A stretch of 64,000 nucleotides of DNA from contig CBDCSI010000002.1 in NCBI GenBank assembly GCA_965221505.1, forward strand, positions 225,575 to 289,574, in the 5' to 3' direction. A program made the translations under genes and the position numbers. Origin of the DNA: Rhodobacterales bacterium (lineage in GTDB: Bacteria > Pseudomonadota > Alphaproteobacteria > Rhodobacterales > CAZPXZ01). Below are positions 10,714 to 57,621 of the stretch, piece after piece. The notes below the pieces were generated by a model. It saw nothing but the letters and a program-made list of their open reading frames with translations, ran no database searches and had not been told where the DNA came from. Every line of letters starts with the position of its first letter. Positions within the stretch are counted from its first letter, which is position 1.

Positions 10714-10777
10714 TCCGAACGGCGCGTTGCGTATCGTCGCGCCGCGCGCGACCGGAGCCGAAGGGAGAACGGGCAGG

Positions 10778-13390: not shown

Positions 13391-13544
13391 GAATCGTCGC
13401 TTGCGTTCCGCGGGGCCGGATGGGAAGCCACCATATCATGAGGCCGAACGGCCGGCGTACCGCGCGCACCGGGCGAACCGTGCCAGCCGTCGGACGGGAC
13501 GGTAGTATTCCGCGCCAGTGTTCCGATCCCGAGAAGGAGTCCGA

Positions 13545-17505: not shown

Positions 17506-17778
17506 TTACCCGTAGCAGTAGCAGTCACCGCTGTCGACGCCCCCGGACGCGTGCTCCAGATCCTGCGCGTCCAGACGTGGCTCGGGAGGCAGAACGAAGT
17601 GAGCTTCGGTCGCGCTGTCCTCGTATACGCTCACCTTCATCTGCTCCGGCAGGGTAACGCCAAGCTCGGACTCGATCGCCTCCTTCGGCTTCGAAAGCAA
17701 CTCTGCACGAAACGCCTCGTCGGTATTGGCACGGGTCACGAGTTGCTCCCGCATTTCCTGCATGGTCTTCACGGTCAT
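17506..17778 (-). CDS. NHLP (nitrile hydratase leader peptide) family RiPP precursor, predicted core VDSGDCYCYG
   Basis: 90 aa: MTVKTMQEMREQLVTRANTDEAFRAELLSKPKEAIESELGVTLPEQMKVSVYEDSATEAHFVLPPEPRLDAQDLEHASGG/VDSGDCYCYG. The leader matches the NHLP pattern (DEAF+.ELL..PK.A...ELG..LPE...V.V.E......VLP). The double-glycine site has hydrophobic residues at -4, -7 and -12. GGAGG lies 3 nt upstream of ATG 17778. Confidence 0.85.
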   Translation of the reverse strand: MTVKTMQEMREQLVTRANTDEAFRAELLSKPKEAIESELGVTLPEQMKVSVYEDSATEAHFVLPPEPRLDAQDLEHASGGVDSGDCYCYG

Positions 17779-18309: not shown

Positions 18310-18573
18310 TCAGCCGCGTGCGCCCGTATCGCCGTCGTCGGAGCCGCTGCTCTGCGGTTTCGGCCGGGGGAGCACGATGTTCAGCGATTCCGCGGAATCG
18401 AATTGCAATTCCACCGTCACTCCCTCGGGAATGTCGAGCCCTTCCGAGCGCAGCGTACCGGCGGGATCCCGTTCCAGCGACCTCCGGTATTCCGGGTCCC
18501 CGTAATACTTCGCCACCACGTCGGTCTCGATCCGCCGCCGATCGATTCGCTTGCGTTCCGCATCGCTTGTCAT
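18310..18573 (-). CDS. NHLP-related small protein / atypical RiPP precursor (no Cys, no GG site)
   Basis: 87 aa from ATG 18573, which has GGAGAAGGA upstream. The stretch VVAKYYGDPEYRRSLERDPAGTLRSEGLDIPEGVTVELQFDSAESLNIVLPRP aligns position-for-position with the leader of the 17506-17778 peptide. The tail is KPQSSGSDDGDTGARG. Confidence 0.7.
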   Translation of the reverse strand: MTSDAERKRIDRRRIETDVVAKYYGDPEYRRSLERDPAGTLRSEGLDIPEGVTVELQFDSAESLNIVLPRPKPQSSGSDDGDTGARG

Positions 18574-19822
18574 TGAACGATCCTTCTCCCCAAAATGCGG
18601 TCGGAGGCCAGGTTCGGACTTCCGCATGCGCGCAGCTCTCGGAAACCCTGGAGACGAGCCGTGGACTCGCCGCTGCACCCACGCGAGGCTGCATCTGCGA
18701 CTGCGATTCAGGCCTCCTTCCGACGATCGTCCCATGATATCGGCCATGTGCGCGTCTTGCGAACGCGGGCTTGCGAAACGTTTTCGATCCGTACGCCGCC
18801 GCAGCCGTCACGGTTGTAGAGGTTGAATTTTGCCCAATAATCGAAACCGACCGCGACGGTTCCACTTAACCGGGGCAAGCTGCCCGCCACGGAACGTCGT
18901 CCGAACGGAAGCCGCGCGGAGACGCCCGGACCCGCAACCCGCACGAACCGTGCCGCCGGGGAGACCATGCAAGCGGCGGAACGCACGCGACGGACGGGTG
19001 GCATGAGTCGCTCCTCGCGACTCGGGGGGCTCAAGTCACGGAGACGACCGCCCGGGCCTCCGGACGCCGCAGACCGGCGAGTTGAGTCAGGGCTCGTGCG
19101 GCCGCCGACCGACTGCCTCCGTCGCACCGTTCCACGCTCGGTCGCCTCGGCCGCCCGCCGCCACGGCTCGCAACCTCGGGTGCTTTGCGGCGACCGGAGG
19201 AACGTTCCGCTTGAAGGCCGAAAACTTGTCCGGTTGAAGGGTTCTACGAAGGCAGCCGGGCGCGCGATGCGCAGCTCGCCGACGCCGGCACGGCTCGAAT
19301 CCTCGACGTGCCTTCGCGCGGCGGCGCCGGGCATCGCGGAGGCTCGCGAACGGCCAGGACATTTGCCGCAGGCCGGAAGACGGTCCTTCGCTGCCGCGCT
19401 CGCCCGCACGTTCGGCCCCGGGGAGCGTCCGCCCCAGCGACCGACGCAACGGCCGGCCCGCGCCGCGAATCGCCACCCTGTCCGTCCCGCCGCCTACCGC
19501 GAATCGGCGCGGGGATTCGGCGAATCGATTCGCGGTTCGGTTCGCTGCAGGGCGGCCCGCGTCCCGGTCGGCGGCCGCGCAACCCCCTCTAATGTGTTAA
19601 AAATCGGACTCGAAATTTTTGCGGCGCTTCGCCGGCGCAGGCGAGTCCCGGCGTCACAGGAACGGCGTTTCCGCAAATAGTTACGACAAGGTCTTCCGGG
19701 TCTTTGCGAGAAAGAATCGTCAACGTATCCGCGACCTGACTTGCCAACTCACGGCAATACGGCAAGGCTCTTCCCGTTCGCGCCGGTTCCGGCGAAACCA
19801 CATCCGAGTCCAGCGGGGCGAC

Positions 19823-20857
19823 ATGAACCCACGAGCGAAAGGCGAATCGGGGAAGAAGCGGAAGCCGGGGCGCAAGCGCCGCGGAAACCGCCGCTGCCCG
19901 TACTTGCATCAGCCGCACGACGCCATTCTCCAGGCCGTCATGGAGGACCTCGAATGCGCCGACGAACTGATCCGGGCGCACCTTCCGCCGGCGATCGCCG
20001 AGATGCTGGACTCGGCGCTGCCGGAAGCGGTAGACGCGCAGCACGTCAGCGCGACTCTTCGTCGCAGCCGCAGCGACCGGATCTTCCGGTTCCGCCTCAA
20101 GAGCGGTTGCAAGCGCAAGTTCCTCTACGTCATCGCCGAGTTCCAGTCCACGGTCGATCCCGGACTCGTCTGGCGGACGCAATCCTACGCAACGCAGCTC
20201 GCGAAGCGCGAGGCGGCGGACGACACGCCGTCCGGGCGACGCAAACGCGCGTGCGTAATTACCCTGATATTCTATCATGGTCGAAAAAAATGGAATGCGG
20301 CGGTGTCTCTTGCGGAGGACGTGGAGGCGGACGAAGAGTTGGTTCCCTACCTCCTGGATTACCGGTACAGCCTCCGGGACCTCGGTCGCATGGCGGTGGA
20401 GAAACTGGCGACGGGAGCGAAGCTGCAGGCCGTCCTTCGGGCCGCGGTCCATGCGTGCCGGAAGTCGGTGACCGGCGGCGAGATCGAAGCGTTGCTGCGA
20501 CTCGTTCCGGAGGAGAGCGATTTTGCGGACCGGTTGCTGCTGTATATCATGGGCGCGATGCCGGCGGATTCGTCGGTGATCAAGCGGGCCGTGAAGAACG
20601 CTTGGCCGAAAACGGGAGTCGAGAAGATGGGACCGATGGGAAGAGAACTCGTGGACGCCGGGCGCAAGGAGGGCCGCAGGGAAGGGCGCGTGAACATGCT
20701 CGAGGGCCTTCTCGCACGCCGGTTCGGCAGTGTGCCGATTCAACTCCGCAAGGTGATTCGCAAGGGTTCGGCCGCCGAGCACGATCGGTTGTTGGACGCG
20801 ATCGTCGAGGGACAGGCGCTCGACGACCTGTGCGCGTCTCGCGCTACGGGGAGATAG
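19823..20857 (+). CDS. Rpn (YhgA-like, PD-(D/E)XK) recombination-promoting nuclease family protein
   Basis: PHDAILQAVMEDLECADELIRAHLP, RSDRIFRF, LYVIAEFQSTVD and IFYHGRKKW motifs, with the C-terminal tail KEGRREGRVNMLEGLLARRFGSVP. Start set at ATG 19823 (MNPRAKG..). An AT-rich patch at 19588-19625 lies upstream. Confidence 0.8.
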   Translation: MNPRAKGESGKKRKPGRKRRGNRRCPYLHQPHDAILQAVMEDLECADELIRAHLPPAIAEMLDSALPEAVDAQHVSATLRRSRSDRIFRFRLKSGCKRKFLYVIAEFQSTVDPGLVWRTQSYATQLAKREAADDTPSGRRKRACVITLIFYHGRKKWNAAVSLAEDVEADEELVPYLLDYRYSLRDLGRMAVEKLATGAKLQAVLRAAVHACRKSVTGGEIEALLRLVPEESDFADRLLLYIMGAMPADSSVIKRAVKNAWPKTGVEKMGPMGRELVDAGRKEGRREGRVNMLEGLLARRFGSVPIQLRKVIRKGSAAEHDRLLDAIVEGQALDDLCASRATGR

Positions 20858-20948
20858 GGCCTCTTCCGGCGAATGCGCGTCGCCGACGGATACGCCGAAG
20901 ATCTCGCGGGTCGCAGAGAACGCCCGGCCGAAGACGGGAGTCGAGAAG

Positions 20949-21850: not shown

Positions 21851-23278
21851 GTGACGATATTGCGACTGCTCTCGGAAACACGCTTTCGGCTGCGCCTTGC
21901 GGAAGGCAGCGCCCTTCATAGGTCGCAAGACGGCCAGGGCTATTCCGTCGACACGGAGATTGGGACGCTCTCCGTCGGCGGATTCGCTCCCGCCTTCGAT
22001 ACTGCCGTTCGTCTGTTGGGGCGCGGAGCCCCTCTGGCCGACTTGCGAGATACGGTCCTCAGCGAGTCCACCGTGGAGTGCGCCGCCCAATGCCTCCTTT
22101 GGATTCAAGCCCTCGCCCGAACCGGCTGCATCCGCTACGCGCTGGTCGACGACGGCCGGGAACTGGCGGCTGTCGACCCGCAGAAACCCCGGTTCTCTCC
22201 CGAGTTGTCGCCCGAAACGCCATCTGCGGATGCGGTTCTCGATCCGCTTGCCTATCTCAGGCAGGAGCCGCAGGGCGGCTGGCGCCTCGAATCGCCGCTG
22301 GCCGACGCCAGCGTTCGGCTGCCCGAACTGGACGCGCTTCGCCATCCGCTCGTTCGCCGGCTGCTCCACGCGCTCGGCATGTTGAGAGCGGAGGAGCGGA
22401 CCTGCGTTTCCGCCGCTCGCCAGGACGCCCTCGCCCAATGGGAATTCCACGACCTCCTGTCGCACATGCGCCAGAGCCCCGGGGTTTTTGCGGCGCCCTT
22501 CGGCAAGCACGCTCCGTTCGTCGGCAAGATCGATCCGCTCCCGGCCGTCCCCGATTTCGGGTCGGCGAATCGGATTCCGCTGCCGCGAGCCGAGGCGGCA
22601 CCGGAACGAGGGTCTGTCTCTTCCGCCCTGGCGCGACGCAGCTCCGTCCGCACGCACGACGAGTCCCGCCCAATCTCCGTCAGGCAGCTGGGCCTGCTCC
22701 TCGATACGGCGGCCCGCATCCGGGACAGGACCCGCGTGCGGATCCGAAGCCTCGACGGATCGGAGTCCTTCGCCGAGTTTACCCGCCGCCCTTACCCGAG
22801 CGGCGGCGCGTCGTACGAACTGGAGATCTATCCGGTCGTGGGAGCCTGCACCGGCATCGAGGCCGGCATGTATCACTACGACGCGAAGTCCCACGCGCTC
22901 GCCTCTGTCTGCCCCGCCGGCGCAAGCACGCGATCGTTCCTGGAAGACGCCGCCCGCGCCATGAGAGCCGCGAAGCCGCCGCAGCTGTTACTGGTGATCT
23001 CCGCGCGGTTCGGCCGGGTCATGTGGTTCTATCGATCCATCGCCTACGGCCTGATCCTGCGAAATACAGGCGCGCTCTACCAGAGCCTCTACCTCGCGGC
23101 GGAGGAAGCGGGACTCGCGTCCTGCGCCATCGGCGCGACCCGTATCGGACTCTTCGCCGACGCCACCGGCCTCGATCCGCTCGTGGAGGGACCGGTAGGA
23201 GCCTTCAGCCTCGGCAGCCGACCAGGACCGGCAATGGGTTCCCGAGCCACCTCGCCCCGGCGGGAGAATGCGGCCTGA
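21851..23278 (+). CDS. SagB/ThcOx-family FMN-dependent dehydrogenase (azoline oxidase) with long N-terminal extension
   Basis: The C-terminal roughly 210 aa carry the SagB-type nitroreductase pattern (RRSSVRTH, RRPYPSGGASYELEIY, MYHYD, RNTGALYQSLYLAAEEAGLASCAIGA). GTG start at 21851. Confidence 0.85.
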   Translation: MTILRLLSETRFRLRLAEGSALHRSQDGQGYSVDTEIGTLSVGGFAPAFDTAVRLLGRGAPLADLRDTVLSESTVECAAQCLLWIQALARTGCIRYALVDDGRELAAVDPQKPRFSPELSPETPSADAVLDPLAYLRQEPQGGWRLESPLADASVRLPELDALRHPLVRRLLHALGMLRAEERTCVSAARQDALAQWEFHDLLSHMRQSPGVFAAPFGKHAPFVGKIDPLPAVPDFGSANRIPLPRAEAAPERGSVSSALARRSSVRTHDESRPISVRQLGLLLDTAARIRDRTRVRIRSLDGSESFAEFTRRPYPSGGASYELEIYPVVGACTGIEAGMYHYDAKSHALASVCPAGASTRSFLEDAARAMRAAKPPQLLLVISARFGRVMWFYRSIAYGLILRNTGALYQSLYLAAEEAGLASCAIGATRIGLFADATGLDPLVEGPVGAFSLGSRPGPAMGSRATSPRRENAA

Positions 23279-23453: not shown

Positions 23454-26378
23454 TCAGACCAGCTGACGTTCCGCAAGCGCCCGGAAGCTACCGTCCGCAG
23501 CCATGAGTTCGTCGAAGGTGCCCGATTCCGACACCCGCCCTCCTTCCAGTACATAGATTCGATTGGCTTCCCGGACGGTGGACAGCCTGTGGGCGATCGC
23601 GATGCGCGTCGAGGTCAGCCGGCGGATTCCGTCCATCGTCTCGCGCTGGCTCGACGCGTCCAGCCAGCTGGTCGCCTCGTCCAGGAACACGATTCGCGGA
23701 TTGCGTACCAGGGAAGCGGCGATTCGGATTCGCTGCCCCTGACCCCCGGAGAGAGTCGTCGCGGACTCGCTGACAGGGGTATACATGCCCATCGGCATCG
23801 CTCGAATGTCGCGCTCGACCCCCGCCGCGCGCGCCGCCCGCCAAGCGTCCGCTTCGGTCAGGTCGCCCATGACGCCGATGATGTTGTCGAGCACCGTGCC
23901 CGATACGAGCGCCCCGTCCTGCACCACGACCCCGACCTGGCGGCGAACCGACTGCGCTCGGAGACTATCCAGACTTTTTCCGTCGTAGTAGATGCCGCCG
24001 GAGACGGGCCGCTCGAGGCCGAGCGCCAGCCGGATCAGAGTGGACTTTCCCGCGCCCGACTCCCCCACGACGGCGATGAATTCGCCGGGTGCGGCATGGA
24101 GAGAGACGTCGTGCAGGACCACCGGACCGTCGCTGCCGTAGCGAAATCGCACGCAGTCGAATCGGATGTCGCCCCCAAGGGTCGTCGCCCGGGCGCTCCG
24201 CCGCACGGGTTCCAGTTCCGCCTGCAGAATGGGACGTGCCTGTTCGCAAACCGGAATGATCGCGGCGATCGCCTCGAACGAAAACCCGAGCATGGCGACG
24301 GTCATGTAGAACGTCATCGATGCGGCATAGACCGCCACGAAGTCGGACACCACGGCAGGACCCGCCTCCAGCCGCAGAACTCCGGCGAACAGCAGAGCGC
24401 CGCCAAACGCCGGCAGCGCCGCCGTAAGCGCCGCCATATGCTCGTTGACGCGCGCGACCTGGATCTGCGCAACCTGTTGCCGTCGGAACGTACGGGCCCA
24501 GAACGCGAACGCCGACGGTCCTGCGCCCGTCGCGCGGAGCTTTCCGATCCCGCCGAGTATCTGCATCAACGTGCTGGCGAGTTCGCGCGTGGCCTCGACG
24601 TACCGACGCTGCGGCCCCACCTGAAGGATTCCGAAGACGACAGCGGCCAGAACTGCCGCGACGCCGACGGTCGCCGTCAACAGCCCCAGGAGAGGGTTGA
24701 GCAACATCAGGGCCACCAGCGCGGGCAAGAGAAACAGCACCGACAGGAACGCGATCACGGCAGGTCCGGCGATCAGGTCGCGCAGGTGATGGAAGGCCAG
24801 CGCACGCATTGCCACCTCGCCTGCCGTACGTTGACGGAAGAAACCGGACGTCAACCGAAGGGTCCGGTCCCACAGCAACGAACTCAAACGGGTCGTCAGC
24901 CTTCCCTCGATTCGCATGATCGCGGTACCGCGCAGGACCTGCAGAAGCGCTGCGACGACGCCGAGCGCGGCCAGCGCCATTCCGAACAGCGCCAGCGTGC
25001 TTCCCGTCGGACCCGCCGGAATCAGGCGCTCGAGAAGAATCGCGAGAGCGAGCGCAGGTGCGAACGCCAGGAGCCCGGCGCCGACGCTCGTCGCGGCCAG
25101 CCGGACGAGATCGAATGCGACTCCTCCCCGCGCAGCCCTCGCCATGTCGGCGAATTCCGCCGGCCGTTCCTTCGGGATCGTGCGGTACAGAAACCACGCG
25201 TCCTCGTGCAGAGCGTCGACCGTGTCCGGTCCGGCCCGCGCGACCCTACCGCTTGCCGGATCGTGAACCCGGTACGCCCCGAAACTGTCGGGAATCAACG
25301 CGACGGGCCGGTCGCCCTCGCGCAGGAAGGCGAGCATTGCGCCGCTGTCGGAGCGCCACCAGTCCGGTTCGGTACGCAGCCGTATACGCCGGGCCCTAAC
25401 GTTGGCATGAGCGAGGAAATCCGCCAGTCCCAGGTCCTCTCCCGGCCCGGTTTCGGGAGCCTGCAAGTCGATCCCCTCGTACTCGCTCACCGTTCGGAGG
25501 GCGACCCGCAGCCCGTCCTCCCGGGTATCGGGAGGAGCTGATTCGTCTCCCAGAAGAGAATGCAGTTCCCCGCGCGCCGCCACTTCCGCACGTCGCAGAA
25601 GAGCGCTCCGGGCGAATTGCAGATTGGCCTGATCGACGACCCGCAGCTGACGGTTCAAACGCATCACGCGCGCCGCCAGCCGGTGGAATTCCGGCAGGTG
25701 CCGGCAGAGCAGCGGGCCCGTCTCCAGCTCCCGGGCCGCGAGGCAGGCGACGTCCGAAGGACCGGATATCTGCATCCATGTGCCCTGCGTCAACGGAATC
25801 AGGGAACGCTCGGACGAATCGGCGTCCTCCAGATCCAGAAACACGGCCGCGAGCCCGTGACACGGAACCCACACCACGCCCTGACGCGCGGAAACCACCC
25901 CCTCGACCGCCGATTCCTCGCCGGCGGACAGCTGCCGCGCAATCCTCGGCCTCGTTTCGATGTCGCGCACCAGCGACTGGCCGAGGGCGTCCACCCACGC
26001 GTCGACCCCCTCGGCGACGGCCGCGGCAAGCGGAGCGTCTTCTCGCGCCTCCTCGACAAGCGCGGCGACGGAGAGCCGACGAAGCCTCGTGTCGGGCAGG
26101 CCCTTGCACAACAGCTGCAAGTCCCCGTCCTTCGTTCCGGTATCGATCCCGAAGGCGAGCTGGCCGCGCTCGAGACGAAGCACGTTCTGCAACGGCGCCC
26201 GAACCGCACCGTCTTCCGTTTCGACCGCGAACACTTCCAGCGAACCCCGTTCGACGTACCAGAGCGACTTCGGGTCTTCGAGCCGCAGCGGCCGGTTTCC
26301 GGCCGACGGCACGGCGTCGCTGGCGGCGGTCGCGAAGCGCGCCAGCGCCTCGGCCGGGGAGAGCCGTTCAATGCGCAT
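23454..26378 (-). CDS. NHLP-type bacteriocin export ABC transporter, permease/ATPase subunit with N-terminal beta-barrel (cNMP-binding-like) domain
   Basis: Walker A GESGAGKST, signature LSGGQGQRIRIAASL and Walker B IVFLDEATSWLD follow a six-helix membrane domain. About 260 extra N-terminal residues are present (..WYVERGSLEVFAVETEDGAVRAPLQNVLRLERGQLAFGI..). Overlaps the upstream ABC gene by 11 nt. Confidence 0.85.
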   Translation of the reverse strand: MRIERLSPAEALARFATAASDAVPSAGNRPLRLEDPKSLWYVERGSLEVFAVETEDGAVRAPLQNVLRLERGQLAFGIDTGTKDGDLQLLCKGLPDTRLRRLSVAALVEEAREDAPLAAAVAEGVDAWVDALGQSLVRDIETRPRIARQLSAGEESAVEGVVSARQGVVWVPCHGLAAVFLDLEDADSSERSLIPLTQGTWMQISGPSDVACLAARELETGPLLCRHLPEFHRLAARVMRLNRQLRVVDQANLQFARSALLRRAEVAARGELHSLLGDESAPPDTREDGLRVALRTVSEYEGIDLQAPETGPGEDLGLADFLAHANVRARRIRLRTEPDWWRSDSGAMLAFLREGDRPVALIPDSFGAYRVHDPASGRVARAGPDTVDALHEDAWFLYRTIPKERPAEFADMARAARGGVAFDLVRLAATSVGAGLLAFAPALALAILLERLIPAGPTGSTLALFGMALAALGVVAALLQVLRGTAIMRIEGRLTTRLSSLLWDRTLRLTSGFFRQRTAGEVAMRALAFHHLRDLIAGPAVIAFLSVLFLLPALVALMLLNPLLGLLTATVGVAAVLAAVVFGILQVGPQRRYVEATRELASTLMQILGGIGKLRATGAGPSAFAFWARTFRRQQVAQIQVARVNEHMAALTAALPAFGGALLFAGVLRLEAGPAVVSDFVAVYAASMTFYMTVAMLGFSFEAIAAIIPVCEQARPILQAELEPVRRSARATTLGGDIRFDCVRFRYGSDGPVVLHDVSLHAAPGEFIAVVGESGAGKSTLIRLALGLERPVSGGIYYDGKSLDSLRAQSVRRQVGVVVQDGALVSGTVLDNIIGVMGDLTEADAWRAARAAGVERDIRAMPMGMYTPVSESATTLSGGQGQRIRIAASLVRNPRIVFLDEATSWLDASSQRETMDGIRRLTSTRIAIAHRLSTVREANRIYVLEGGRVSESGTFDELMAADGSFRALAERQLV

Positions 26379-28620
26379 GGAGAAACTCGCGATAGAGACT
26401 GCCCTCCGCCGCGATCAACGACTCGTGGGTGCCTTCCTGCACCACCCGGCCCCGGTCGAGAACGAGAATGCGGTCGCTGTCCCGGATCGTGCTCAGCCGA
26501 TGGGCGACGATGAGGCTGGAACAGCCGCGGTGACGCAGCGCTTCGTCGATGCGGAATTCGTTCACCGTATCGAGACTGCTGGTCGCCTCGTCGAGGATCA
26601 GGAGCGACGGATTGACGACCAGCGCACGGGCGATCTCGAGTCGGAGACGCTGGCCGCCGCTGAAGTTACGGCCCTCCTCCTCGATCGGGGAGTCGTAGCC
26701 GAGCGGGCGAGCGATGATCTCGTCGTGAATCCGGGCGTCCCGGGCCGCGTCGACCATGGCGTCCTCGGGAACCGCCGCGTTCCACATGGTCAGGTTCTCC
26801 CGAACGCTGGCGGCGAACAGCACCGTGACCTGGCTCACCACCGAGACGGACGAAGCCAGGATTTCCGGCGGAATCTCCTCGCGCGGGAGCCCGTCGAACA
26901 AGATCTCCCCCGACCACGGCCGGTAGACGCCGGCAGCCAGCATGGCCAGGGTGGACTTGCCGGAGCCGCTGGGTCCGACGACCGATACCCGCTGACCGAC
27001 CTCGACCACGAGGTTGAAGTCCTCGATCAGCGGCGGCCTGTGCTTCGTGTAGCCGAAGGTGACGTTGCGCATCTCGAGCCGACCCGCCAGGCGAAGCCGA
27101 CCGGCGACTCTCGCCAGGCGGCCCGACCGCTCGTCGCCTCCGCGATTCGGGACGTCGTCGTCCGGCGGCGCGTCGAACACGTCGTTCAGGCGCGAGAGGT
27201 CGGCCTCGAGCGTCTGAAACAGGTCGGAGAACAGCGCCAGGCGTCCCACCGGCTGCAGGAAGCCGGTAGCGAGCAAATGGAGCCCGATCAGCGTGCCGAC
27301 CGACAACTCGCCGGACGCGAGCCGCTCCCCGCCGATGCCGAAGACCACCGCGGCGCCGAGGAACGTGAACAGGATCGGCAGCGCGGCGACGACATGTCCG
27401 AGTTCGACGAAGTCCTGCCGTGCGCCGAGTTCGCGCGCTTGGTAGCCGCTCAACTTCGCGAAGAAGTCGTCCTCCGACGCGGTGGCCCGCATGCTCTCCG
27501 TATGACGGAGGCCCGCCATGCCGAAGCCGATCAGCTTGCCCTGCTCGCGGCCCAGCTGGTGGTTCAAATCGGTCCGCCGCCGGGTCAGGAGCCGGGTAAG
27601 CAGGACGGACCCGATCCCCATGGAACCGACCAGCGACGCCAGCAGGGAATCGATCGCGAACATGGCGCCGAGAAAGGCGAGGCTCATCACGAGTTCGATC
27701 ATTACCGCGACGAGCTGGCTCGTTCCGAGCTGCGCGACTGTGCCGATGAGGCGGGCGCGCTCCGCGAGCTCGCCGGCGTGGCGCTGCACGAAGAAGCGCA
27801 TCGGCAGGCGAAGCAGGTGAACCAGGTACCGGTCCGACTGTTCCACCGTAAGTCGCACGGCGAGTTTTCGAAGCAGTCGCCGCTGGAACCAGGTCAGGAG
27901 ATAGACCGCCGCGCCGGACGCCGCCATCCCGCCGACCAGAACCGGCGCCCAGCCCGGCTGCCGGCCGCCAAGAACGTAATCGACGAACGCGGACAGGATC
28001 AACGGCATGGCGAGGCCGAGCGCGGCGAGAAGAAGTCCGGCGAGAACGGCGGCGAACAGGGTGGGCTTGAAACGGCGGAGCCACGGCCAGAGAAGCGGCA
28101 GGACGCCGGGACGCCTCCCGCCGGGCCGAAACCGCTCGTCGGCCTCGAAGGTCAGCGCGACGCCGGTGAAGGCGCCCGAGAAAGTCTCTGCGTCGACCGT
28201 CCGATGCCCCTGAGCGGGGTCGTTGATCCGAAAGCCGTCGCCGGCAAAGCCTTCGAGCACCACGAAGTGGTTGAATTCCCAGAACAGCACCGCGGGCAGC
28301 GGCGTGAACTTCAACTCGGGAATCCTTCGCCGCCAGCCGGTCGCCTTCACGCCGTACTCCCGGGCCGCGCGGACGATATCGGCCGCACTGCATCCGTCGC
28401 GCCCGACCGCGCACGCGTCCCGGAGCTCCTCCAGAGGCACCCAACGCCCGAAATGAGCCAGAACGATGCCCAGGCAGGCTGCGCCGCAGTCCGCCGTCTC
28501 GTGCTGAAGATAGACGGGCGTTCGGACGCGCTGCCGCATCTCCCGCCACCGCGCGAGCAAGCGTCCCGGAAGCCCCGCCTTCCACGCGCGCGTCGCAGAC
28601 CGAGGAAGACGGAGTCGCAC
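26368..28620 (-). CDS. NHLP-type bacteriocin export ABC transporter with N-terminal C39 peptidase domain
   Basis: C39 motifs QHETADCGAACLGIVL (Cys), FNHFVVLEG (His) and RINDP (Asp). These are followed by the membrane domain, Walker A GPSGSGKST, signature FSGGQRLRLEIARAL and Walker B LLILDEATSSLD. Confidence 0.9.
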   Translation of the reverse strand: MRLRLPRSATRAWKAGLPGRLLARWREMRQRVRTPVYLQHETADCGAACLGIVLAHFGRWVPLEELRDACAVGRDGCSAADIVRAAREYGVKATGWRRRIPELKFTPLPAVLFWEFNHFVVLEGFAGDGFRINDPAQGHRTVDAETFSGAFTGVALTFEADERFRPGGRRPGVLPLLWPWLRRFKPTLFAAVLAGLLLAALGLAMPLILSAFVDYVLGGRQPGWAPVLVGGMAASGAAVYLLTWFQRRLLRKLAVRLTVEQSDRYLVHLLRLPMRFFVQRHAGELAERARLIGTVAQLGTSQLVAVMIELVMSLAFLGAMFAIDSLLASLVGSMGIGSVLLTRLLTRRRTDLNHQLGREQGKLIGFGMAGLRHTESMRATASEDDFFAKLSGYQARELGARQDFVELGHVVAALPILFTFLGAAVVFGIGGERLASGELSVGTLIGLHLLATGFLQPVGRLALFSDLFQTLEADLSRLNDVFDAPPDDDVPNRGGDERSGRLARVAGRLRLAGRLEMRNVTFGYTKHRPPLIEDFNLVVEVGQRVSVVGPSGSGKSTLAMLAAGVYRPWSGEILFDGLPREEIPPEILASSVSVVSQVTVLFAASVRENLTMWNAAVPEDAMVDAARDARIHDEIIARPLGYDSPIEEEGRNFSGGQRLRLEIARALVVNPSLLILDEATSSLDTVNEFRIDEALRHRGCSSLIVAHRLSTIRDSDRILVLDRGRVVQEGTHESLIAAEGSLYREFLHAH

Positions 28621-28623
28621 GAG

Positions 28624-29502
28624 TCAGCGCACCGCCGAAGCGAAAACGAGGCGAATCGGGGATCGCTTCTCCAGGACGAAGGTCACTTCGCAAGGCGTGC
28701 CGTCCGCGAGTTCGACGCCGTCGGCCTTCAGGGACAGGCGAACGAGGTACGGCGGGCCGTCCGGCCCGTCTTCGTCGCCCACTGCCCCCCGCCGCGACGC
28801 CGACGGCGAAGAAACGGACTCTACGCGGGCCGGATACACGGAGACCGGCGCCCCGCGCTCCGGCGCGAACACGGCGACCCGGGCTCCTTGCCCTTCCCTC
28901 ACGACCGCTGCGGCGCCCCGATCGATCAGGGCCACCGCTTCCGGAACCGAACTCCTGCCGGATCGGATCTCGGCCACTTCCGTTCCGGGCTCGACGGTTT
29001 GCCCTGCGGTCCTGCGCACCGCAGCAACTTCGCCCGACCGGGGACTCTCGAGCACGCTACCGGCCTCGACCAGCGCCTCCAGCCGGTCGACTTCGGACCT
29101 CGCCGCCCCGATCGCCTCCGGCTCCGCGCCCCGCTCCTCCGCGATCTTCAGTTGCCGGATTGCCGCCCGAAGCCGCAGACCCAACGACGTCGGGTCCAGC
29201 GCGGCGACCGGCTGTCCCGCCGCCACCGCGTCTCCCGGCCGGACATGCGTCCGCGCTACCACGCCCGACACCGCCGAGACCACCGGATAGCGTTCGCCGG
29301 GAAGAACCAACACGCCGGGCCGGGACAGGGAACGCTCGACGGGGACCAGCGAAACGAACGCGATCACGGCCACGATTCCGACCGCGAACAGGCCGAGGAA
29401 GAGCCATTCGTGCGGCGCCGTGACCCGCATCGGGTAATCGATGGGTTCCGGTTGAGAGCGTTGCGCCAACGCTTCGTCCCGGAACAGTCGGCTCCTCAAC
29501 AT
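28624..29502 (-). CDS. HlyD-family secretion adaptor of the NHLP export system
   Basis: ATG 29502 gives MLRSRLFRDEALAQRSQPEPIDYPMRVTAPHEWLFLGLFAVGIV, which is the HlyD N-terminus plus a single TM helix. Coiled-coil and beta-barrel regions follow. The stop lies 3 nt before the C39-ABC start. Confidence 0.85.
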   Translation of the reverse strand: MLRSRLFRDEALAQRSQPEPIDYPMRVTAPHEWLFLGLFAVGIVAVIAFVSLVPVERSLSRPGVLVLPGERYPVVSAVSGVVARTHVRPGDAVAAGQPVAALDPTSLGLRLRAAIRQLKIAEERGAEPEAIGAARSEVDRLEALVEAGSVLESPRSGEVAAVRRTAGQTVEPGTEVAEIRSGRSSVPEAVALIDRGAAAVVREGQGARVAVFAPERGAPVSVYPARVESVSSPSASRRGAVGDEDGPDGPPYLVRLSLKADGVELADGTPCEVTFVLEKRSPIRLVFASAVR

Positions 29503-29930
29503 GGCGTCACCCCTCCCGGGCCGTATCGCTGCGGCGCCGCCGGACCCCAACCGCGCCGGCCGCCCGAACCGCGATCGGGCCCGTTTTTCGAGTCTCCGCG
29601 GGCGCGAGTCGACTCTACCGCCGGAAACGCGACCCCTGCCGGCCGCGAACATGTTGACACCGGACGCCGCGCGAAGTCCAATTCACCGCTCCTCCGACTC
29701 GCCCGACACTTGGGAAGAAAAACGATCGCCGCTCGTCACCGCAGATTCGCTCCGTATGCCGGCCCGAGCCGCCGCCGTTCGCCGACGAGACGATCGAGCC
29801 GAGCGTCGGCGCCGACGACCGAGTCCGCTCGCCTCCGGCGCCTGCCGCCGGGACGCGCAATTCGGCGACGCCAAACCCGCAGTCTCGCGTCCGACGCGAG
29901 CGTCCCGCGTCCGACGGTCGTCCGCTCCCG

Positions 29931-31031
29931 TTGACTCGAGCGCCCGCCCTGCCGCCCCGTCCTTCCGCCCCGGACCGGCGGCAGTCCGACGACCCGGCCG
30001 GTCAGGGTGTCCGCGCCGGGACGCGATCCGCGGCGGAAACGCTTCGCCCGATTCTCGACCTGATCGAGCGTCGCGTACCGGACGCGCTGATCGACCGGCA
30101 GGGCTGGAGCGCAATTGCGGAACGGACCGCCGACCTTCCGAGGCTTGCGGCGGAGAGTTCCGTCGGCTTCGAGACGCGATTGCAGGATCCGCGCCCGGCC
30201 GCGGATTTCTTCGTATGGATTCGCCCTTCCGGCCGGTTCGGCGAGTATCTGCTGCATGCGGACGATGGCGGCGGGCGGGCGCCGATTGGCCCGGAGGCGA
30301 TCCGCCGACTGCGCCGCGCCGGATCGACCCTCGCCCGGCGGGTGCCCTGGCTCATCCTGGAATACGACGTCGTCGACGCCCCGCCCGGCTCCGCTCTTGC
30401 GCCGGGCGTGTTTCTGACGGACATCCCCCCGATCCCGCAAGACGAATGGAACCCGATCGCGGACATACTCGACCTCGCTACGCGCCGGACGGAGTGCCGG
30501 GAGGAGAGGCGCATGCTCGCGGCGCTCGCCGGCGCGGTACCGCCCGGCGGGCGCATCGCCCATCTCGGCGCCATGCCCGATCGGCGCCCGCGCACGCTCC
30601 GCGCCCTGGTCAAGACCGATCCGCAGCAGACTCCGGGATTTCTTCGACAAATCGGCTGGCCCGGGGCAATTCGGGAGTTCGAACGTACGGTCGAGCCGAT
30701 GCGGCGGCTGATCGCCGGATGGTCCGTCGCCTGCGACGTCACGTCCGGCGCCGTCGCGCCGCAACTCGGAATCGAGTTGTTTCTCCACGGCTTGTGGCCC
30801 GCCCTGACCGCGGCCGACTGGCACCCCCTCCTCGAACGACTCGAAGCGGAGAGCCTGTGCCGCCCGGAGAAGGCGGCGGCCCTTCGCGCGGAGATTCCTC
30901 CCCGTACCGTGATCGACGAACGCGGCGTTCGCGTCATGCGAACCGGGATCAACCATATCAAGCTGACGCTCCGCGCCGACGGCACGATCGGCTGCAAGGC
31001 GTATCTCGGCGTGGCGTTCCTGACCGCCTGA
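29931..31031 (+). CDS. hypothetical protein, no recognisable family (five helix/beta-hairpin repeats)
   Basis: The composition is balanced and non-Arg-biased, unlike the antisense ORF 30002-30997. Five hairpin-like segments are present: VGFETRLQDPRPAADFFVWIRP, WLILEYDVVDAPPGSALAPGVFLTD, RIAHLGAMPDRRPRTLRALVKT, WSVACDVTSGAVAPQLGIELFL and INHIKLTLRADGTIGCKAYLGVAFL. The start is uncertain (TTG 29931 is the first in-frame start). Confidence 0.65.
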   Translation: MTRAPALPPRPSAPDRRQSDDPAGQGVRAGTRSAAETLRPILDLIERRVPDALIDRQGWSAIAERTADLPRLAAESSVGFETRLQDPRPAADFFVWIRPSGRFGEYLLHADDGGGRAPIGPEAIRRLRRAGSTLARRVPWLILEYDVVDAPPGSALAPGVFLTDIPPIPQDEWNPIADILDLATRRTECREERRMLAALAGAVPPGGRIAHLGAMPDRRPRTLRALVKTDPQQTPGFLRQIGWPGAIREFERTVEPMRRLIAGWSVACDVTSGAVAPQLGIELFLHGLWPALTAADWHPLLERLEAESLCRPEKAAALRAEIPPRTVIDERGVRVMRTGINHIKLTLRADGTIGCKAYLGVAFLTA

Positions 31032-31243: not shown

Positions 31244-33538
31244 TCAGACGAAGGGATCCAGGGGATTGAGATCGCTCTCCTTCGGCATCGCGTCCAGCCA
31301 ACCCTGGCGGACCGGCACCTCGTAGAGGCGCCCGGGCGCGAGCCGCCGCCAGAAGTGCCGGAGTCCCGGCACGATCACGCGCACGACCGGCAGACCGACG
31401 TCGTCGCGCGTCTGGTCCAGCGTCAGGAACTCCATGCCCTTCCGCTCGACCAGGGCGCGGCACAATTCGACGTCCTCGCGATGGTCCGAGGTCTCCGGGA
31501 CCTCGTAATCGCTTCGGGCGCGCCGTTCGGCGGCGGCGTCGGGCAAGAGGTAAGGATGGTCATCCGCGCGCACCGTGCGGCACCACGCCTTCGCCTCCGC
31601 AGACAGCTCCAGGCAGCGTCGCGACAGAACGTCCCGGTCCAGTCTGGTCAGGCCCTGGTTCAACTCGGACACGGCCCGCATGGCCGCAATCAGCGGATCG
31701 AAATGTGCGCCTGCGCCCAGAACGATCCGGTCGTCGCCTTCGCCGACGGTCCGCGAAACGGCGACGAACGACGGGATGCCGAGATCCGTGGTGACGTCCA
31801 GCACCCAGTATTCCCGCCCGAAAGATTCGTAACTGCGCCGTACCCGGTCGAAAAAACCCTCGCCGAAACTCGCGAGATCCAGGCTCGGCCGCCGGAGGCG
31901 GTTGAACCACCAGCAGGCGAATCCGTCCCGCTCCACCAATTCGAAGAAGCCCTGCAGGATCGCTTCGGCCAGGGTGTTTCCGGACGCGCAGCCGTTGGAA
32001 TTGGCGACGTACCGGTTCCGGCTGCCGGGGGTCGGGCGCGAGTAATAGAGCGTCTCCGTCGGCAGGTAGCGGTGCTTGCCGGCGGTAAACGACCACACCG
32101 GCGTCCAGTCGGTTTCCGCCTCCGGATCGAACGGCTCCGGCACGAACGCCTTGCCCGCGCCGTCCGCCCGACCGGCCAGCTGCGCCTCGCTGAAGAGTTC
32201 CACGCAGTTCGGGGGGATTGCGTCCGCCTCCGGAAAGTCGACGAACCGGGCGCGCCGAACGATCTCGCCGCCCAGGCGGATTCCCGAATACCGTTCGAAC
32301 CCTTCGCACATGCCGCTCGCACGGGCCTGGGCGAGGGTACTTCCCTTGCCGGTGCTCACCGGCAAGCTGGCGGGGTCGAACAACCGATCGAAGCGCTGCA
32401 TCGTCGCAGGCAGGCTCTGAACGGTGCCGAAGACGTGCAGCCAGGGATCGTCCGGAAATTCGATCGGCTCCAGCGGCGACAGAATCCCCGTGATCGGATC
32501 GACCAGGTGCCGGTGCCGTCGAATCGTCTCCTCGGGCGGAACGGAACGCGTGCCGCCGCTGTTCTGCACCGCCTTCGGCGACGGACCCGGAGACACCGGA
32601 ACCGGCGCCCGGTCCGGCCGGCGGGACTCCGGATCGCCGCAGGCCTCGCACATTCCGCTCGGAACCACGCAGTGCCGGTCCACCCGGCCCGAGCTGGCGT
32701 TCAAGGACATCGCATGTTCGTTGAGCGGCGATTCGTCGTCGAACACGACCCACCTCGCGATCTCGAGCGCGGCCGCGCCGATCGCCGCGTCGCGTAGCGG
32801 ACTCGGGCGAACGGGCGTCGCAACCGGCCCGCCGGCTTCGCGCCGCAGGAGCGTCTCGACGACCAGTCGTTCGGACATGCGGCGCTCCAGGCAGCGCCAG
32901 CAAGGTCCGCGTCCGGGACGAAACACCGGGCCGAACAGCGGAAGGCCGCCGTCGGGGCTCAGGAGCATCCAGGCCTGCGCCGCCTCGGCCTGGCGACGGC
33001 AGGTCTCGGCATGCGCGGCATCGCGGACGTCGTCGGTGAACCGGACCGAGAGATCCCCGCCGGAGTCGACGACCGTCACTCCGAGTCTCGACAGTGCCGC
33101 CCGAAACCCCTCGAAACGGTCCTCGACTTCCACGGTCGTCTCGGCGAGCCGCCGCTCCGCCCAGCGCGGCGACGCGCCCAGCCGGCACCAGAACGTCGCA
33201 AGGTTCGGCGCGAGCCCATGCTCCCCGGAGACGAGCTGGCCGGACGTCGCCATGCGCACCAGCGCCGTCTGGGTCTCCAGCGGGGCGTGTCGGCCCTCCA
33301 GGGATTCGACGATTTCGTGGCGCGTCCGCGTGCCGTCGAGAAGCGGCAGCAGGTCCGGAAAGCACGCGCCCGTGAGCACGACCGCCCCGCCCGCATCGTT
33401 GACGAGAACGGCACGCTCCTCCGCCGGATACGCGCGCCAGGAGAGGTGCGGCGCGATCGTCGGCCGTTCGACCAGTCCGCGGTCCGCCGGGGTGGTGCGG
33501 ACGAGGGAACGAATGGCGAATGGAGTACGATCGCTCAC
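31244..33538 (-). CDS. fused TOMM cyclodehydratase: E1/ThiF-like leader-docking domain + YcaO domain
   Basis: The N-terminal half has Cys pairs (GPCWRCLERR; HCVVPSGMCEACGD) as in E1-like/SagC-type proteins. The C-terminal half has the YcaO core STGKGSTLAQARASGMCEGFERYSG, plus NSNGCASGNTLAEA and a Pro-rich C-terminus NPLDPFV. GTG start 33538 is preceded by GAGGA. Confidence 0.9.
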   Translation of the reverse strand: MSDRTPFAIRSLVRTTPADRGLVERPTIAPHLSWRAYPAEERAVLVNDAGGAVVLTGACFPDLLPLLDGTRTRHEIVESLEGRHAPLETQTALVRMATSGQLVSGEHGLAPNLATFWCRLGASPRWAERRLAETTVEVEDRFEGFRAALSRLGVTVVDSGGDLSVRFTDDVRDAAHAETCRRQAEAAQAWMLLSPDGGLPLFGPVFRPGRGPCWRCLERRMSERLVVETLLRREAGGPVATPVRPSPLRDAAIGAAALEIARWVVFDDESPLNEHAMSLNASSGRVDRHCVVPSGMCEACGDPESRRPDRAPVPVSPGPSPKAVQNSGGTRSVPPEETIRRHRHLVDPITGILSPLEPIEFPDDPWLHVFGTVQSLPATMQRFDRLFDPASLPVSTGKGSTLAQARASGMCEGFERYSGIRLGGEIVRRARFVDFPEADAIPPNCVELFSEAQLAGRADGAGKAFVPEPFDPEAETDWTPVWSFTAGKHRYLPTETLYYSRPTPGSRNRYVANSNGCASGNTLAEAILQGFFELVERDGFACWWFNRLRRPSLDLASFGEGFFDRVRRSYESFGREYWVLDVTTDLGIPSFVAVSRTVGEGDDRIVLGAGAHFDPLIAAMRAVSELNQGLTRLDRDVLSRRCLELSAEAKAWCRTVRADDHPYLLPDAAAERRARSDYEVPETSDHREDVELCRALVERKGMEFLTLDQTRDDVGLPVVRVIVPGLRHFWRRLAPGRLYEVPVRQGWLDAMPKESDLNPLDPFV

Positions 33539-33630
33539 GCAGTCCTCGAAGCAGACGGAAGCATATCGCTCGACCGAAGGGGAGAATTCCCTGCCCGTAC
33601 CTCTGTACCGAGTCCTCGAAGGGCGTCAAC

Positions 33631-45687: not shown

Positions 45688-45975
45688 TTACCCCCCAACG
45701 GTATCGAGATATTCCCTCCTCTTTTCGGAGGCCCAAGGCTGGCCGCCGTGAACCTGATGGAGCGACTGGTCCGAGACCTTCGAATCCTGCGGCAGGACGA
45801 AATTCGCCACGTTGGGCGTGTCCTCGTGGACCTTGATCTCCAGATCGTCCGGCAACTTGTACCCGAGCTCGCTTTCGAGCGCCGTCTTGGGCGATTCGAT
45901 CAAACTGGCCCGAAACGCTTCGTCTTCGGATGCCCGGCGCACCAGGTGCGCCCTCACTTCGTCTGCGGTCTTCAT
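45688..45975 (-). CDS. NHLP family RiPP precursor paralogue (orphan), predicted core QPWASEKRREYLDTVGG
   Basis: 95 aa from ATG 45975, with GGGGAGA upstream: MKTADEVRAHLVRRASEDEAFRASLIESPKTALESELGYKLPDDLEIKVHEDTPNVANFVLPQDSKVSDQSLHQVHGG/QPWASEKRREYLDTVGG. The leader and GG site align with the peptide at 17506-17778. Confidence 0.8.
   Translation of the reverse strand: MKTADEVRAHLVRRASEDEAFRASLIESPKTALESELGYKLPDDLEIKVHEDTPNVANFVLPQDSKVSDQSLHQVHGGQPWASEKRREYLDTVGG

Positions 45976-57545: not shown

Positions 57546-57621
<76 letters not shown>

Follow-up and report, generated by a model that had tools for sequence, protein, structure and literature searches.

Gene content of the locus

The window, that is, the whole 64,000-nucleotide stretch analysed here, carries an NHLP-leader RiPP precursor gene at about 17.5 kb, and genes for predicted azole-forming and export proteins extend from there to about 33.6 kb (Table 1). 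Genes such as those for a long-form YidC, Lgt, an MsbA-related ABC protein, UbiK/BMFP and GlnE would fit a high-GC Gram-negative bacterium as the source of the window.

Table 1. Coordinates of the features at the locus (positions in the window)
Feature	Position	Strand	Basis
NHLP-leader RiPP precursor	17506..17778	-	TIGR03793 and translation; stop codon 17506-17508
Predicted 10-residue core VDSGDCYCYG	17509..17538	-	Read from the sequence
C-terminal part of the leader, L-DAQD-L-EHAS-GG	17539..17580	-	L(X)4L, then double-glycine cleavage site
Second NHLP-like small protein	18310..18573	-	TIGR03793, 40.2 bits, under cut-off; without GG site and without Cys
Rpn/YhgA-like Transposase_31 gene	19619..20857	+	PF04754, E = 1.5e-30; also PF14261
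Extra DUF4351 fragment	20757-21203		PF14261
SagB-type FMN dehydrogenase, azoline to azole	21851..23278	+	TIGR03605, 140.3 bits (cut-off 78.4)
NHLP-type export ABC permease/ATPase (ABC2), without peptidase domain	23454..26378	-	TIGR03797
C39 peptidase/ABC exporter, predicted leader-cleaving transporter	26368..28620	-	PF03412, 108.6 bits
HlyD-family membrane-fusion adaptor	28624..29652	-	PF13437
366-aa protein, predicted ABBA aromatic prenyltransferase fold	29931..31031	+	AF2 model and Foldseek
Fused E1-like/RRE and YcaO cyclodehydratase	31244..33550	-	TIGR03604, TIGR03882, PF02624
Third NHLP peptide, orphan	45688..45975	-	GG site; core with Trp, without Cys

The precursor and its core

Translation of the precursor gene gave MTVKTMQEMREQLVTRANTDEAFRAELLSKPKEAIESELGVTLPEQMKVSVYEDSATEAHFVLPPEPRLDAQDLEHASGG-VDSGDCYCYG up to the stop codon, which bears out the ten-residue core that had been claimed to follow the GG site. 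The leader ends in LDAQDLEHASGG, with the GG codons at 17539-17544, and counting back from the GG site placed Ala at -4 and Leu at -7 and -12, exactly where the original prediction had put them. A profile HMM search showed that the precursor matches TIGR03793 with 72.1 bits (cut-off 50.9; E = 2.5e-20; model positions 1-77), and this score and the sequence agree with the claim that the gene encodes a precursor of NHLP type carrying a double-glycine site. The GC content at the three codon positions is 0.65/0.40/0.77, which is gene-like given the ~69% GC of the window, and a syntenic precursor orthologue is present in another assembly (locus L001; 58% identity). Because of the TIGR03793 score, the gene-like codon-position GC and the syntenic orthologue, the ORF is, judged by its sequence, a true NHLP precursor gene, and a chance ORF is ruled against.

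The candidate azole residues of the core are Cys6, Cys8 and Ser3, with Cys6 and Cys8 as the predicted thiazole sites. A literature search for CYCYG returned scorpion toxins only. A word-indexed homologue search with the precursor gave no match but the precursor itself, and a precursor-based scan of metagenome contigs gave zero relatives; the precursor relatives described below were found by a full HMMER search of representatives.

The GGAGG that had been attributed to this gene is present, but it lies only 2 nt from the ATG at 17778 and its spacing fits the in-frame GTG at 17772, which is 8 nt away. The product would have 90 aa from the ATG and 88 aa from the GTG. Because of the GGAGG spacing, the 88-aa gene call in the database and the MKTM start of the L001 orthologue, the true start is probably GTG 17772, with an 88-aa product beginning MKTMQEM. 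The core VDSGDCYCYG is the same whichever start codon is used. The proposed TTGACA-N17-TCTACT promoter motif is also present, but it is weak and did not pass a consensus scan because its -10 element lacks an A at position 2. No terminator-like structure was found downstream of the precursor, where the fold z-score (0.48) is not unusual.

Among the three NHLP-type peptides of the window, only this precursor had been said to contain Cys, and the other two indeed have none. The second shows 55% identity to L001:12537-12803 and 46% to an L004 gene, and genes of its type adjoin the YcaO gene in related clusters, an arrangement that is conserved; the protein is probably not a substrate. The core that follows the GG site of the third peptide is QPWASEKRREYLDTVGG.

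Predicted azole-forming and export genes

The fused E1-like/YcaO protein scored 239.9 bits against TIGR03604 (cut-off 219.25), 118.2 bits against TIGR03882 (cut-off 36.9) and 307 bits against PF02624. The SagB-type dehydrogenase also matches PF00881 and PF22767, and its N-terminal region is ThcOx-like. The best matches of the export proteins lie below the respective cut-offs: TIGR03797 for ABC2 (649.4 bits; equivalog cut-off 709.4), TIGR03796, by a slight margin, for the C39 exporter (835.6 bits; cut-off 853.3) and TIGR03794 for the HlyD-family adaptor (64.5 bits; cut-off 156.2). The C39 domain of the exporter is clearly recognised by PF03412 (108.6 bits), and its Gln/Cys motif LQHETADCGAAC is intact; its N-terminal domain contains QHETADCGAAC, and the candidate His (NHFVVL) and Asp (INDPA) were chosen by eye. 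Cleavage by a C39 peptidase, as originally proposed, has a matching gene in the cluster, the function of which is predicted. Neither radical-SAM genes nor PatA/PatG-type protease matches were found among the scanned cluster genes.

Because the neighbours of the precursor comprise the fused E1-like/YcaO protein, SagB, HlyD and two ABC proteins, one of them the C39 exporter, conversion of Cys6 and Cys8 into two thiazoles (-40.05 Da) is a sound prediction, made by analogy with MprE/MprC/MprD, an NHLP/YcaO/FMN-oxidase system shown experimentally to make thiazoles (PMC12455567). The original prediction of a two-thiazole unit made by YcaO and SagB holds in that both enzymes exceed the curated cut-offs, but falls short in that the product is probably also prenylated.

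A protein with a predicted prenyltransferase fold

The 366-aa gene, which has YcaO on one side and the export genes on the other, did not feature in the original prediction. Searches of Pfam and NCBIfam gave no match for the protein, and a Pfam search at E <= 10 with six family members gave none either; a PDB sequence profile search with the family gave zero matches, prenyltransferases included. The AF2 model of the protein (pLDDT 77, pTM 0.79) was compared with the PDB by Foldseek. The result showed that the top 38 matches are all ABBA prenyltransferases, the first 35 of them with probabilities of 0.98 or more. The model of a homologue, P0274 (pLDDT 84), gave 78 Foldseek matches at E <= 1e-3, and all 50 of the 50 matches listed are prenyltransferases, each with a probability of 1.00. 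The structural matches include AmbP1/3, NphB, CloQ, DMATS1 (Tyr/Trp), 5- and 6-DMATS, PagF and PirF, the match to PagF being weak (E = 1.2e-2), and the fold matches of the family have TM-scores of 0.4-0.55 at sequence identities of 8-17%.

The family has invariant polar residues (D92, E144, D146, R224, D269, H342, K344, K356 and Y358) on the predicted barrel strands, several of them arranged as i/i+2 pairs. On the model, this arrangement is that expected for Mg2+/diphosphate binding within an ABBA barrel. Pattern scans of genome and metagenome contigs for relatives of the protein found none. The alignment of the six family members was also too divergent for use in scanning.

The protein is proposed, from its modelled fold, to be a leader-dependent peptide prenyltransferase, and this suggests that a prenyl group is also added to the decapeptide. 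VDSGDCYCYG contains two Tyr and zero Trp, and Tyr7 and Tyr9 are the candidate acceptors. The best point of reference is MppC, a leader-dependent ABBA prenyltransferase from the mpp lanthipeptide cluster of Moorena producens, which acts on the seven-residue core ACWRWSG behind a Nif11 leader, geranylates Trp C-5 after thioether cyclisation by LanM and does not accept a Trp82Tyr substrate (PMC12715784). In view of this preference of MppC and of the missing Trp, prenylation of Tyr in the window would be an extrapolation.

Related clusters and the core motif

Homologues of the 366-aa protein recur as 'hypothetical proteins' in assemblies of Acidobacteriota, Gemmatimonadota and Latescibacterota, and they adjoin precursors in the divergent clusters L001, L005, L006 and L008-10. 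The motif C-x(0,1)-[WY] was found in the core of all five precursor-linked homologue contexts (the window, L001, L005, L006 and L008-10) but in only 3/48 of the nearest short NHLP representatives (Fisher p = 2e-5). The cores in the homologue clusters are NCGGEGTCWW (L001), LCCCW, CLCW.. and NCEWG..; they contain Trp, the acceptor in MppC, which is absent from the window core.

The conservation of the GG site and of the Cys positions in homologous precursors had been named as a check on the original prediction, and the outcome of this check was mixed. The GG site is invariant in 7/7 aligned precursor relatives. In the closest relative, L001, the core also has 10 residues and is hypervariable in sequence, and the GG site, Cys8 and an aromatic residue at position 9 are kept, but Cys6 is replaced by Gly. 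The alignment showed that Cys8 followed by an aromatic residue is common to the window core, the L001 core and P0127 (..YLCWG).

The orthologues in L001 show identities of 53% (YcaO), 47% (prenyltransferase-like protein), 73% (ABC1), 59% (ABC2), 43% (HlyD) and 55% (NHLP2). No SagB gene was found within 10 kb in this cluster. The association of the prenyltransferase-like gene with YcaO and export genes is conserved in L001 and L005. L005 also encodes a Trp halogenase and a squalene-cyclase-like protein fused to NHLP, and L009 encodes an oxygenase that resembles WelO5, together with an (alpha/alpha)6 toroid protein. The precursor leader in L006 is of the short mersacidin type. The homologue P0275 (E = 7e-8) is encoded between LanM and a lanthipeptide precursor, which is an indirect link to MppC-type enzymes.

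The YcaO homologues of ~50% identity were tried as a guide to related clusters and rejected: most belong to YcaO-SagB-LanM clusters (L002-L004, L011 and L012), whose cores are long and Ser/Thr/Cys-rich. Because these are a different cluster type, they are uninformative on VDSGDCYCYG.

The gene order in the window differs from that in L001, and the Transposase_31 gene with the duplicated DUF4351 fragment stands between the precursors and the SagB gene, separating them from the modification and export genes. Together with the failed promoter scan, the missing terminator and exporter parts that score slightly to far under the NCBIfam equivalog cut-offs, these features would fit a rearranged, silent or decaying cluster whose ORF yields no product in the organism. 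This is very unlikely: compared with models or orthologues, each of the nine cluster ORFs runs to full length and none shows a frameshift, and the precursor retains an intact GG site and L(X)4L motif, a codon bias of the coding type and, ahead of the GTG, a good Shine-Dalgarno sequence.

That a complete set of well-scoring azole, cleavage and export genes is present would also be explained if the product were the bis-thiazole decapeptide only, with the ABBA-fold protein either inactive or acting on the third NHLP peptide or on a small molecule. The lack of Trp in VDSGDCYCYG and the rejection of Tyr by MppC speak for this, as do the GG site and Trp-containing core of the third peptide and the homologue in L014 (a 9.2-kb contig), which has neither a precursor nor RiPP genes nearby. 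It is nevertheless rather unlikely: the prenyltransferase-like gene sits inside the cluster, flanked by YcaO and the export genes, and is kept in this association in both L001 and L005, its homologues consistently accompany Cys-aromatic cores, and the retention of the invariant acidic and basic strand residues argues against decay of the ABBA-fold protein.

Every prenyltransferase-linked core contains Cys, and Cys, not the aromatic residue, might be what links the family. In that case the enzyme would alkylate a nucleophile other than Tyr (a Cys thiol, the core N-terminus or the C-terminal carboxylate), with at most one Cys converted into thiazole. L008-10, in which the prenyltransferase-like gene is present and YcaO is absent within 10 kb, would leave a single Cys free, and cyanobactin prenyltransferases modify termini and many side chains (PMC12715784). 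Against this, the aromatic neighbour of Cys is just as conserved as Cys itself, the structural neighbours of the 366-aa protein are indole, phenol or Tyr prenyltransferases, and the overview in PMC12715784, in the part available, does not name Cys among the targets of ABBA peptide prenyltransferases. Alkylation of a non-Tyr nucleophile accordingly has little probability.

Proposed pathway and product

Taken together, the genes at ~17.5-33.6 kb point to a small RiPP cluster whose likely product is an exported, prenylated bis-thiazole decapeptide, a reading that we hold at a little better than even odds (roughly 55%). For this product we infer the following chemistry and order of steps. The NHLP leader of ~78 residues, in which an acidic tail with L(X)4L comes after a folded nucleus, would serve to dock the precursor on its modifying enzymes. 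The fused E1-like/YcaO protein would convert Cys6 and Cys8 into thiazolines by ATP-driven cyclodehydration, and the SagB-type flavoprotein would oxidize these to thiazoles, with a net change of -40.05 Da (bis-thiazole M = 1040.300). With the leader still attached, the 366-aa protein would then move an isoprenoid from a prenyl diphosphate to the core. The acceptor would most plausibly be the thiazole-adjacent Tyr9 or Tyr7, and the mass gain would be +68.06 (C5), +136.13 (C10) or +204.19 (C15), depending on the donor. Finally, cleavage after Gly-Gly and export of the lipidated decapeptide would fall to the C39-ABC transporter, assisted by the HlyD adaptor and the other ABC protein. The decapeptide may have an antimicrobial or a signalling role.

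A broader reading, to which we give somewhat less than an even chance, is that the window and its relatives represent an undescribed NHLP sub-class, in which azole cores of 5-13 residues ending in Cys-Trp or Cys-Tyr are lipidated by a divergent, leader-dependent ABBA family without database annotation. The enzyme in the window would be directed to Tyr beside a thiazole, and its product would be the first prenylated linear azole peptide outside the cyanobactins. A lipidated peptide of this length could well serve as a diffusible signal or as a membrane-active antibiotic.

If the prenylated product is correct, a single cluster joins azole formation and leader-guided prenylation. No report of NHLP azole formation together with leader-dependent prenylation was found in the literature consulted, which shows leader-guided prenylation only alongside lanthionine cyclisation. 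The 366-aa protein would then belong to a prenyltransferase family that is new and lacks annotation, perhaps able to use Tyr adjacent to a heterocycle as acceptor, and a function would be assigned to the recurrent 'hypothetical proteins' of the three phyla named above. Leader-dependent, site-selective lipidation enzymes are sought in peptide engineering, and with a substrate of only 10 residues and a compact set of genes this system should be easy to reconstitute.

Comparison with known systems

The likeness in azole chemistry is to the mpr system of a methanotroph (Nguyen et al. 2022), in which MprC (YcaO, RRE) and MprD (flavin oxidase) convert Cys into thiazole on MprE1-10 and in which the L(X)4L motif is required for thiazole formation on NHLP-led cores (PMC12455567). 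Both systems have a long folded NHLP leader, L(X)4L followed by GG, and a YcaO protein with a flavin oxidase. Comparison of the precursor leader with that of MprE7 gave 33% identity (E = 2e-13), and the MprE7 leader motif LSDEDLGAVTGG has the identical L-x4-L-x4-GG spacing. The systems differ in that the Mpr cores carry 2-6 azolines each, whereas the core here has 10 residues with two Cys and the cluster includes an ABBA-fold gene; in the portion of the mpr literature available, no prenyltransferase was found described.

MppC and the prenyl/terpene-cyclase RiPPs of Hubrich et al. 2024 resemble the window in having a soluble ABBA-fold enzyme encoded beside a long-leader precursor with a very short Cys/aromatic core, and nine MppC-like proteins co-localise with NHLP peptides (PMC12715784 supplement). 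The halogenase, terpene-cyclase-like and oxygenase genes in L005 and L009 recall the mpp prenyl-RiPP cluster, in which a terpene synthase and an oxygenase accompany a halogenase (PMC11791876). The window differs in that the partner chemistry would be azole formation by YcaO/SagB, and its precursor combines an NHLP leader with a core that contains Tyr and lacks Trp.

The prenylated cyanobactins, such as prenylagaramide and trunkamide (PatD/LynD YcaO, ThcOx, PagF/TruF), follow the chemical logic proposed here, combining azol(in)es with ABBA prenylation of Tyr, Trp, Ser or Thr. Their prenyltransferases act without a leader, and the 366-aa protein has a weak fold match to PagF and no Pfam match. 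Membership in the cyanobactins was rejected: PatA/PatG-type proteases are absent from the scanned cluster genes, there are no recognition sequences and no macrocyclisation, and the peptide would be cut at GG by a C39 transporter. Assignment as a polytheonamide-type proteusin was also rejected, as the cluster has the NHLP leader but no radical-SAM gene. The cluster can be called a proteusin only under the broad usage that covers any NHLP-led RiPP.

The ComX pheromone of Bacillus, like the product proposed here, is a short exported peptide (5-10 residues) that carries an isoprenoid on a Trp near its C-terminus. ComQ is polyprenyl-synthase-like and not ABBA, and the ComX system has no azoles, NHLP leader or C39 export.

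With the NHLP/TOMM systems of Haft, Basu and Mitchell 2010 (TIGR03793/03796/03797/03794; reviewed in PMC4603692) the window has in common the precursor family, the association of a cyclodehydratase with a dehydrogenase and, with scores below the equivalog cut-offs, probably the paired ABC exporters with HlyD. The cores of those systems are described as long and hypervariable with a low Cys/Ser/Thr fraction (PMC4603692), whereas the sub-group described here has cores of 5-13 residues ending in Cys-aromatic and an extra prenyltransferase-like gene.

The precursor and its modification cluster

Gene calling by codon-position GC and scans against Pfam and NCBIfam showed a single cluster in the window, bordered by housekeeping genes: glnE at one end, and yghU-like GST, metG and an msbA-like gene at the opposite end. 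The YcaO, SagB and C39 functions that the original prediction had assumed for azole formation and leader cleavage were all found by these scans. In the C39 domain of ABC1 the Gln/Cys motif is retained, alongside candidate His and Asp residues. The best matches of the three export components were NHLM models, yet their scores were under the equivalog cut-offs.

Features of the cluster, of the rest of the window and of related loci (L001 to L014) in other assemblies
Feature	Position	Strand	Family match
Precursor	17506-17778	-	TIGR03793
Core-less NHLP-like protein	18310-18573	-	
Its counterpart in L001	L001:12537-12803		
Its counterpart in L004	L004:5977-6159		
Rpn/Transposase_31 gene	19619-20857	+	
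The same with detached DUF4351 fragment	19619-21203	+	
SagB dehydrogenase	21851-23278	+	TIGR03605 (140 bits, cut-off 78)
NHLP-type ABC2	23454-26378	-	
C39-peptidase ABC1	26368-28620	-	
HlyD adaptor	28624-29652	-	
366-aa protein	29931-31031	+	none
Fused leader-binding/YcaO cyclodehydratase	31244-33550	-	TIGR03604 (240 vs 219); TIGR03882 (118 vs 37)
Orphan NHLP precursor	45688-45975	-	TIGR03793 (70 bits)
APH-type kinase gene	46551-47882		
tRNA genes (Pro-CGG, Ala-GGC, Met-CAT)	56723-56799, 57546-57621, 61314-61390	+	
LCCCW precursor	L005:11341-11592	-	
Four tandem NHLP precursors	L007:9470-11068	+	
Prenyltransferase-like gene with precursor	L008-L010, about 10000-14700		
Prenyltransferase-like gene	L014:7352-8464		

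The predicted translation of the precursor ORF proved exact: an NHLP-type leader that ends in RLDAQDLEHASGG precedes VDSGDCYCYG, after which comes the stop codon, with Ala at -4 and Leu at -7 and -12 as proposed. The ORF is a real gene, because it matches TIGR03793 (72.1 bits, E 2.5e-20, cut-off 50.9), has the coding pattern of this ~69% GC window (codon GC 0.77 at the third position and 0.40 at the second) and has a syntenic orthologue in L001. The GGAGG reported upstream is present, but it lies 2 nt from the ATG, compared to 8 nt from an in-frame GTG at 17772. Given this spacing, the 88-aa database gene call and the MKTM start of the orthologue, the protein probably starts with MKTMQEM at the GTG. 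The proposed promoter, TTGACA-N17-TCTACT, exists but fails a consensus scan because the key A is missing from the -10 element, and a search for a terminator at the gene found none. Beyond the three tRNA genes, an Rfam scan of the window gave nothing at the gathering threshold.

Two other NHLP-like ORFs occur in the window and both lack Cys, confirming that the precursor alone contains it. One of them, the small core-less protein, has counterparts next to the YcaO gene in related clusters (55% identity in L001 and 46% in L004). It has neither a GG site nor an L(X)4L motif, and the hydrophilic tail varies. Such a protein resembles a leader domain that has no core attached, and it may assist or regulate the cyclodehydratase. 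The third peptide is an orphan precursor ending in ..HQVHGG-QPWASEKRREYLDTVGG, with Trp and Tyr. Situated 12 kb away, it adjoins the APH-type kinase gene and enolase, and could be a second substrate of the exporter or the prenyltransferase.

An orthologous cluster conserves the cleavage site and one of two Cys

No close relative of the precursor was found in a word-indexed database; a full HMMER search retrieved 2549 NHLP relatives, the best at ~50% identity. Homologues of the YcaO protein are numerous at around 50% identity; most are uninformative and come from YcaO-SagB-LanM clusters with long cores. The best (53%) belongs to L001, which is a truly orthologous cluster: ABC1 (73%), ABC2 (59%), the 366-aa protein (47%), the precursor (58%) and the core-less protein (55%) all have counterparts, together with HlyD and YcaO. 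Gene order differs between the two clusters. In the window, the stretch separating SagB from the precursors holds the Rpn/YhgA-like Transposase_31 gene plus a detached second fragment of DUF4351, which suggests that mobile elements have rearranged the cluster.

The L001 precursor ends in ..LEQVTGG-NCGGEGTCWW, again giving a 10-residue core. The GG site is invariant in seven aligned relatives. Within the core, Gly4, Asp/Glu5, Cys8 and an aromatic residue at position 9 are kept, but Cys6, the other predicted thiazole site, is not. SagB is absent from the 22.4-kb L001 locus (the YcaO gene with 10 kb in each direction); the peptide made there may retain thiazolines, or the oxidase may be encoded elsewhere. 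Among the nearest short-core NHLP relatives, 35 of 48 have no Cys at all and 28 of 48 have an aromatic residue, often Trp, within the last three positions. This hints that, in peptides with this type of leader, aromatic C-termini receive other, non-azole modifications.

The 366-aa protein has a predicted ABBA prenyltransferase fold

Sequence searches with the 366-aa protein and with six members of its family, down to E = 10, matched nothing in Pfam, NCBIfam or the PDB; NCBI labels the homologues 'hypothetical protein'. Its AlphaFold2 model (pLDDT 77, pTM 0.79) showed five helix-helix-strand-strand repeats. In a Foldseek search against the PDB, the top 38 matches were all ABBA aromatic prenyltransferases, including AmbP1, NphB/Orf2, AnaPT, TleC, CloQ, DMATS1 (a Tyr/Trp enzyme) and 5-DMATS; the cyanobactin enzymes PagF and PirF matched more weakly. 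When homologue P0274, which is 31% identical, was modelled as well (pLDDT 84, pTM 0.85), there were 78 matches at E<=1e-3; each of the 50 listed was an ABBA prenyltransferase. Residues D92, E144, D146, R218, R224, D269, H342, K344, K356 and Y358 are invariant in the family, nearly all on predicted barrel strands and often in i/i+2 pairs. Such a pattern would fit an internal Mg2+/diphosphate site.

Cores linked to prenyltransferase-like genes share a Cys-aromatic motif

Homologues of the 366-aa protein adjoin precursors in five further contexts (L001, L005, L006, L008-10). L001, a metagenome assembly, combines the homologue with YcaO, ABC1, ABC2, HlyD, the NHLP-like protein and core NCGGEGTCWW; L005 (Acidobacteriota) with YcaO, a Trp halogenase and the five-residue core LCCCW; L006, a metagenome contig, with a class II LanM and a mersacidin-type leader (core GSCLCWSC...); and L008-10 (Latescibacterota/Gemmatimonadota) with a WelO5-like oxygenase, an (alpha/alpha)6 toroid protein and core AGAENCEWG... 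All of these cores have Cys and then Trp or Tyr within one residue, compared to 3/48 of the nearest short NHLP representatives (Fisher p = 2e-5). YcaO is absent within 10 kb at L008-L010, and therefore the prenyltransferase-like family is not tied to azole chemistry. As a caveat, no precursor was visible beside the prenyltransferase-like gene on the 9.2-kb L014 contig. This gene belongs to the second-closest homologue family (P0273/P0291, 30% identity) and neighbours PQQ-propeller and ankyrin genes.

Several of these loci have further features. The L005 precursor follows an ..ISAG cleavage site beside YcaO, prenyltransferase-like and flavin Trp halogenase genes, and in a 435-aa protein encoded there, NHLP-like and squalene-cyclase-like domains are fused. 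In the L008-L010 MAGs, the precursor core is AGAENCEWGHDHHDEYHVPLGGP and the WelO5-like protein is an Fe/2OG enzyme. The related locus L007 (Acidobacteria MAG contig WTFV01000097) carries four tandem precursors with 8-9-residue cores (LCDGCTPCW, ACFAHPCW, ICEDAFRGW and NCITSPPCW). SagB, a 713-aa FAD/NAD(P)-binding protein and exporters adjoin them, but the contig breaks off before any YcaO or prenyltransferase gene would come into view.

Proposed pathway and comparison with characterised systems

The gene identities and the ABBA fold come from the database and structure searches; from them we infer the chemistry, order of steps, donor, acceptor and biological role. Most likely, the leader would dock on the modifying enzymes, YcaO and SagB would turn Cys6 and Cys8 into thiazoles (M 1080.353 to 1040.300), the ABBA enzyme would add a prenyl group (M = 1108.363 for C5 or 1176.426 for C10), most plausibly to a Tyr adjoining a thiazole, and the C39 transporter would cut after GG and export the product. 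The original prediction holds in part: it is right on the precursor, cleavage site and azole machinery, but it missed the probable lipidation, overstated the promoter and relied on one unconserved Cys. The main interest lies in the unannotated prenyltransferase family and in the combination of azole and prenyl groups on an NHLP scaffold; a full-text search of a limited literature collection found no description of a pathway with NHLP, YcaO and a prenyltransferase.

Two characterised systems, MprC/MprD and MppC, bracket the window cluster. MprC/MprD put thiazoles on NHLP-led MprE peptides and need the L(X)4L motif (PMC12455567); the leader in the window shares 33% identity with that of MprE7 and has the same L-x4-L-x4-GG spacing. 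MppC is an ABBA prenyltransferase that depends on the full length of a long leader. Once lanthionine has formed, it geranylates Trp82 in the 7-residue core ACWRWSG, and it rejected Tyr in place of this residue; a Trp halogenase, a terpene synthase and an oxygenase are encoded in the same cluster (PMC12715784, PMC11791876). According to the supplement of the MppC study, which does not mention YcaO, nine proteins similar to MppC are encoded near NHLP peptides (PMC12715784).
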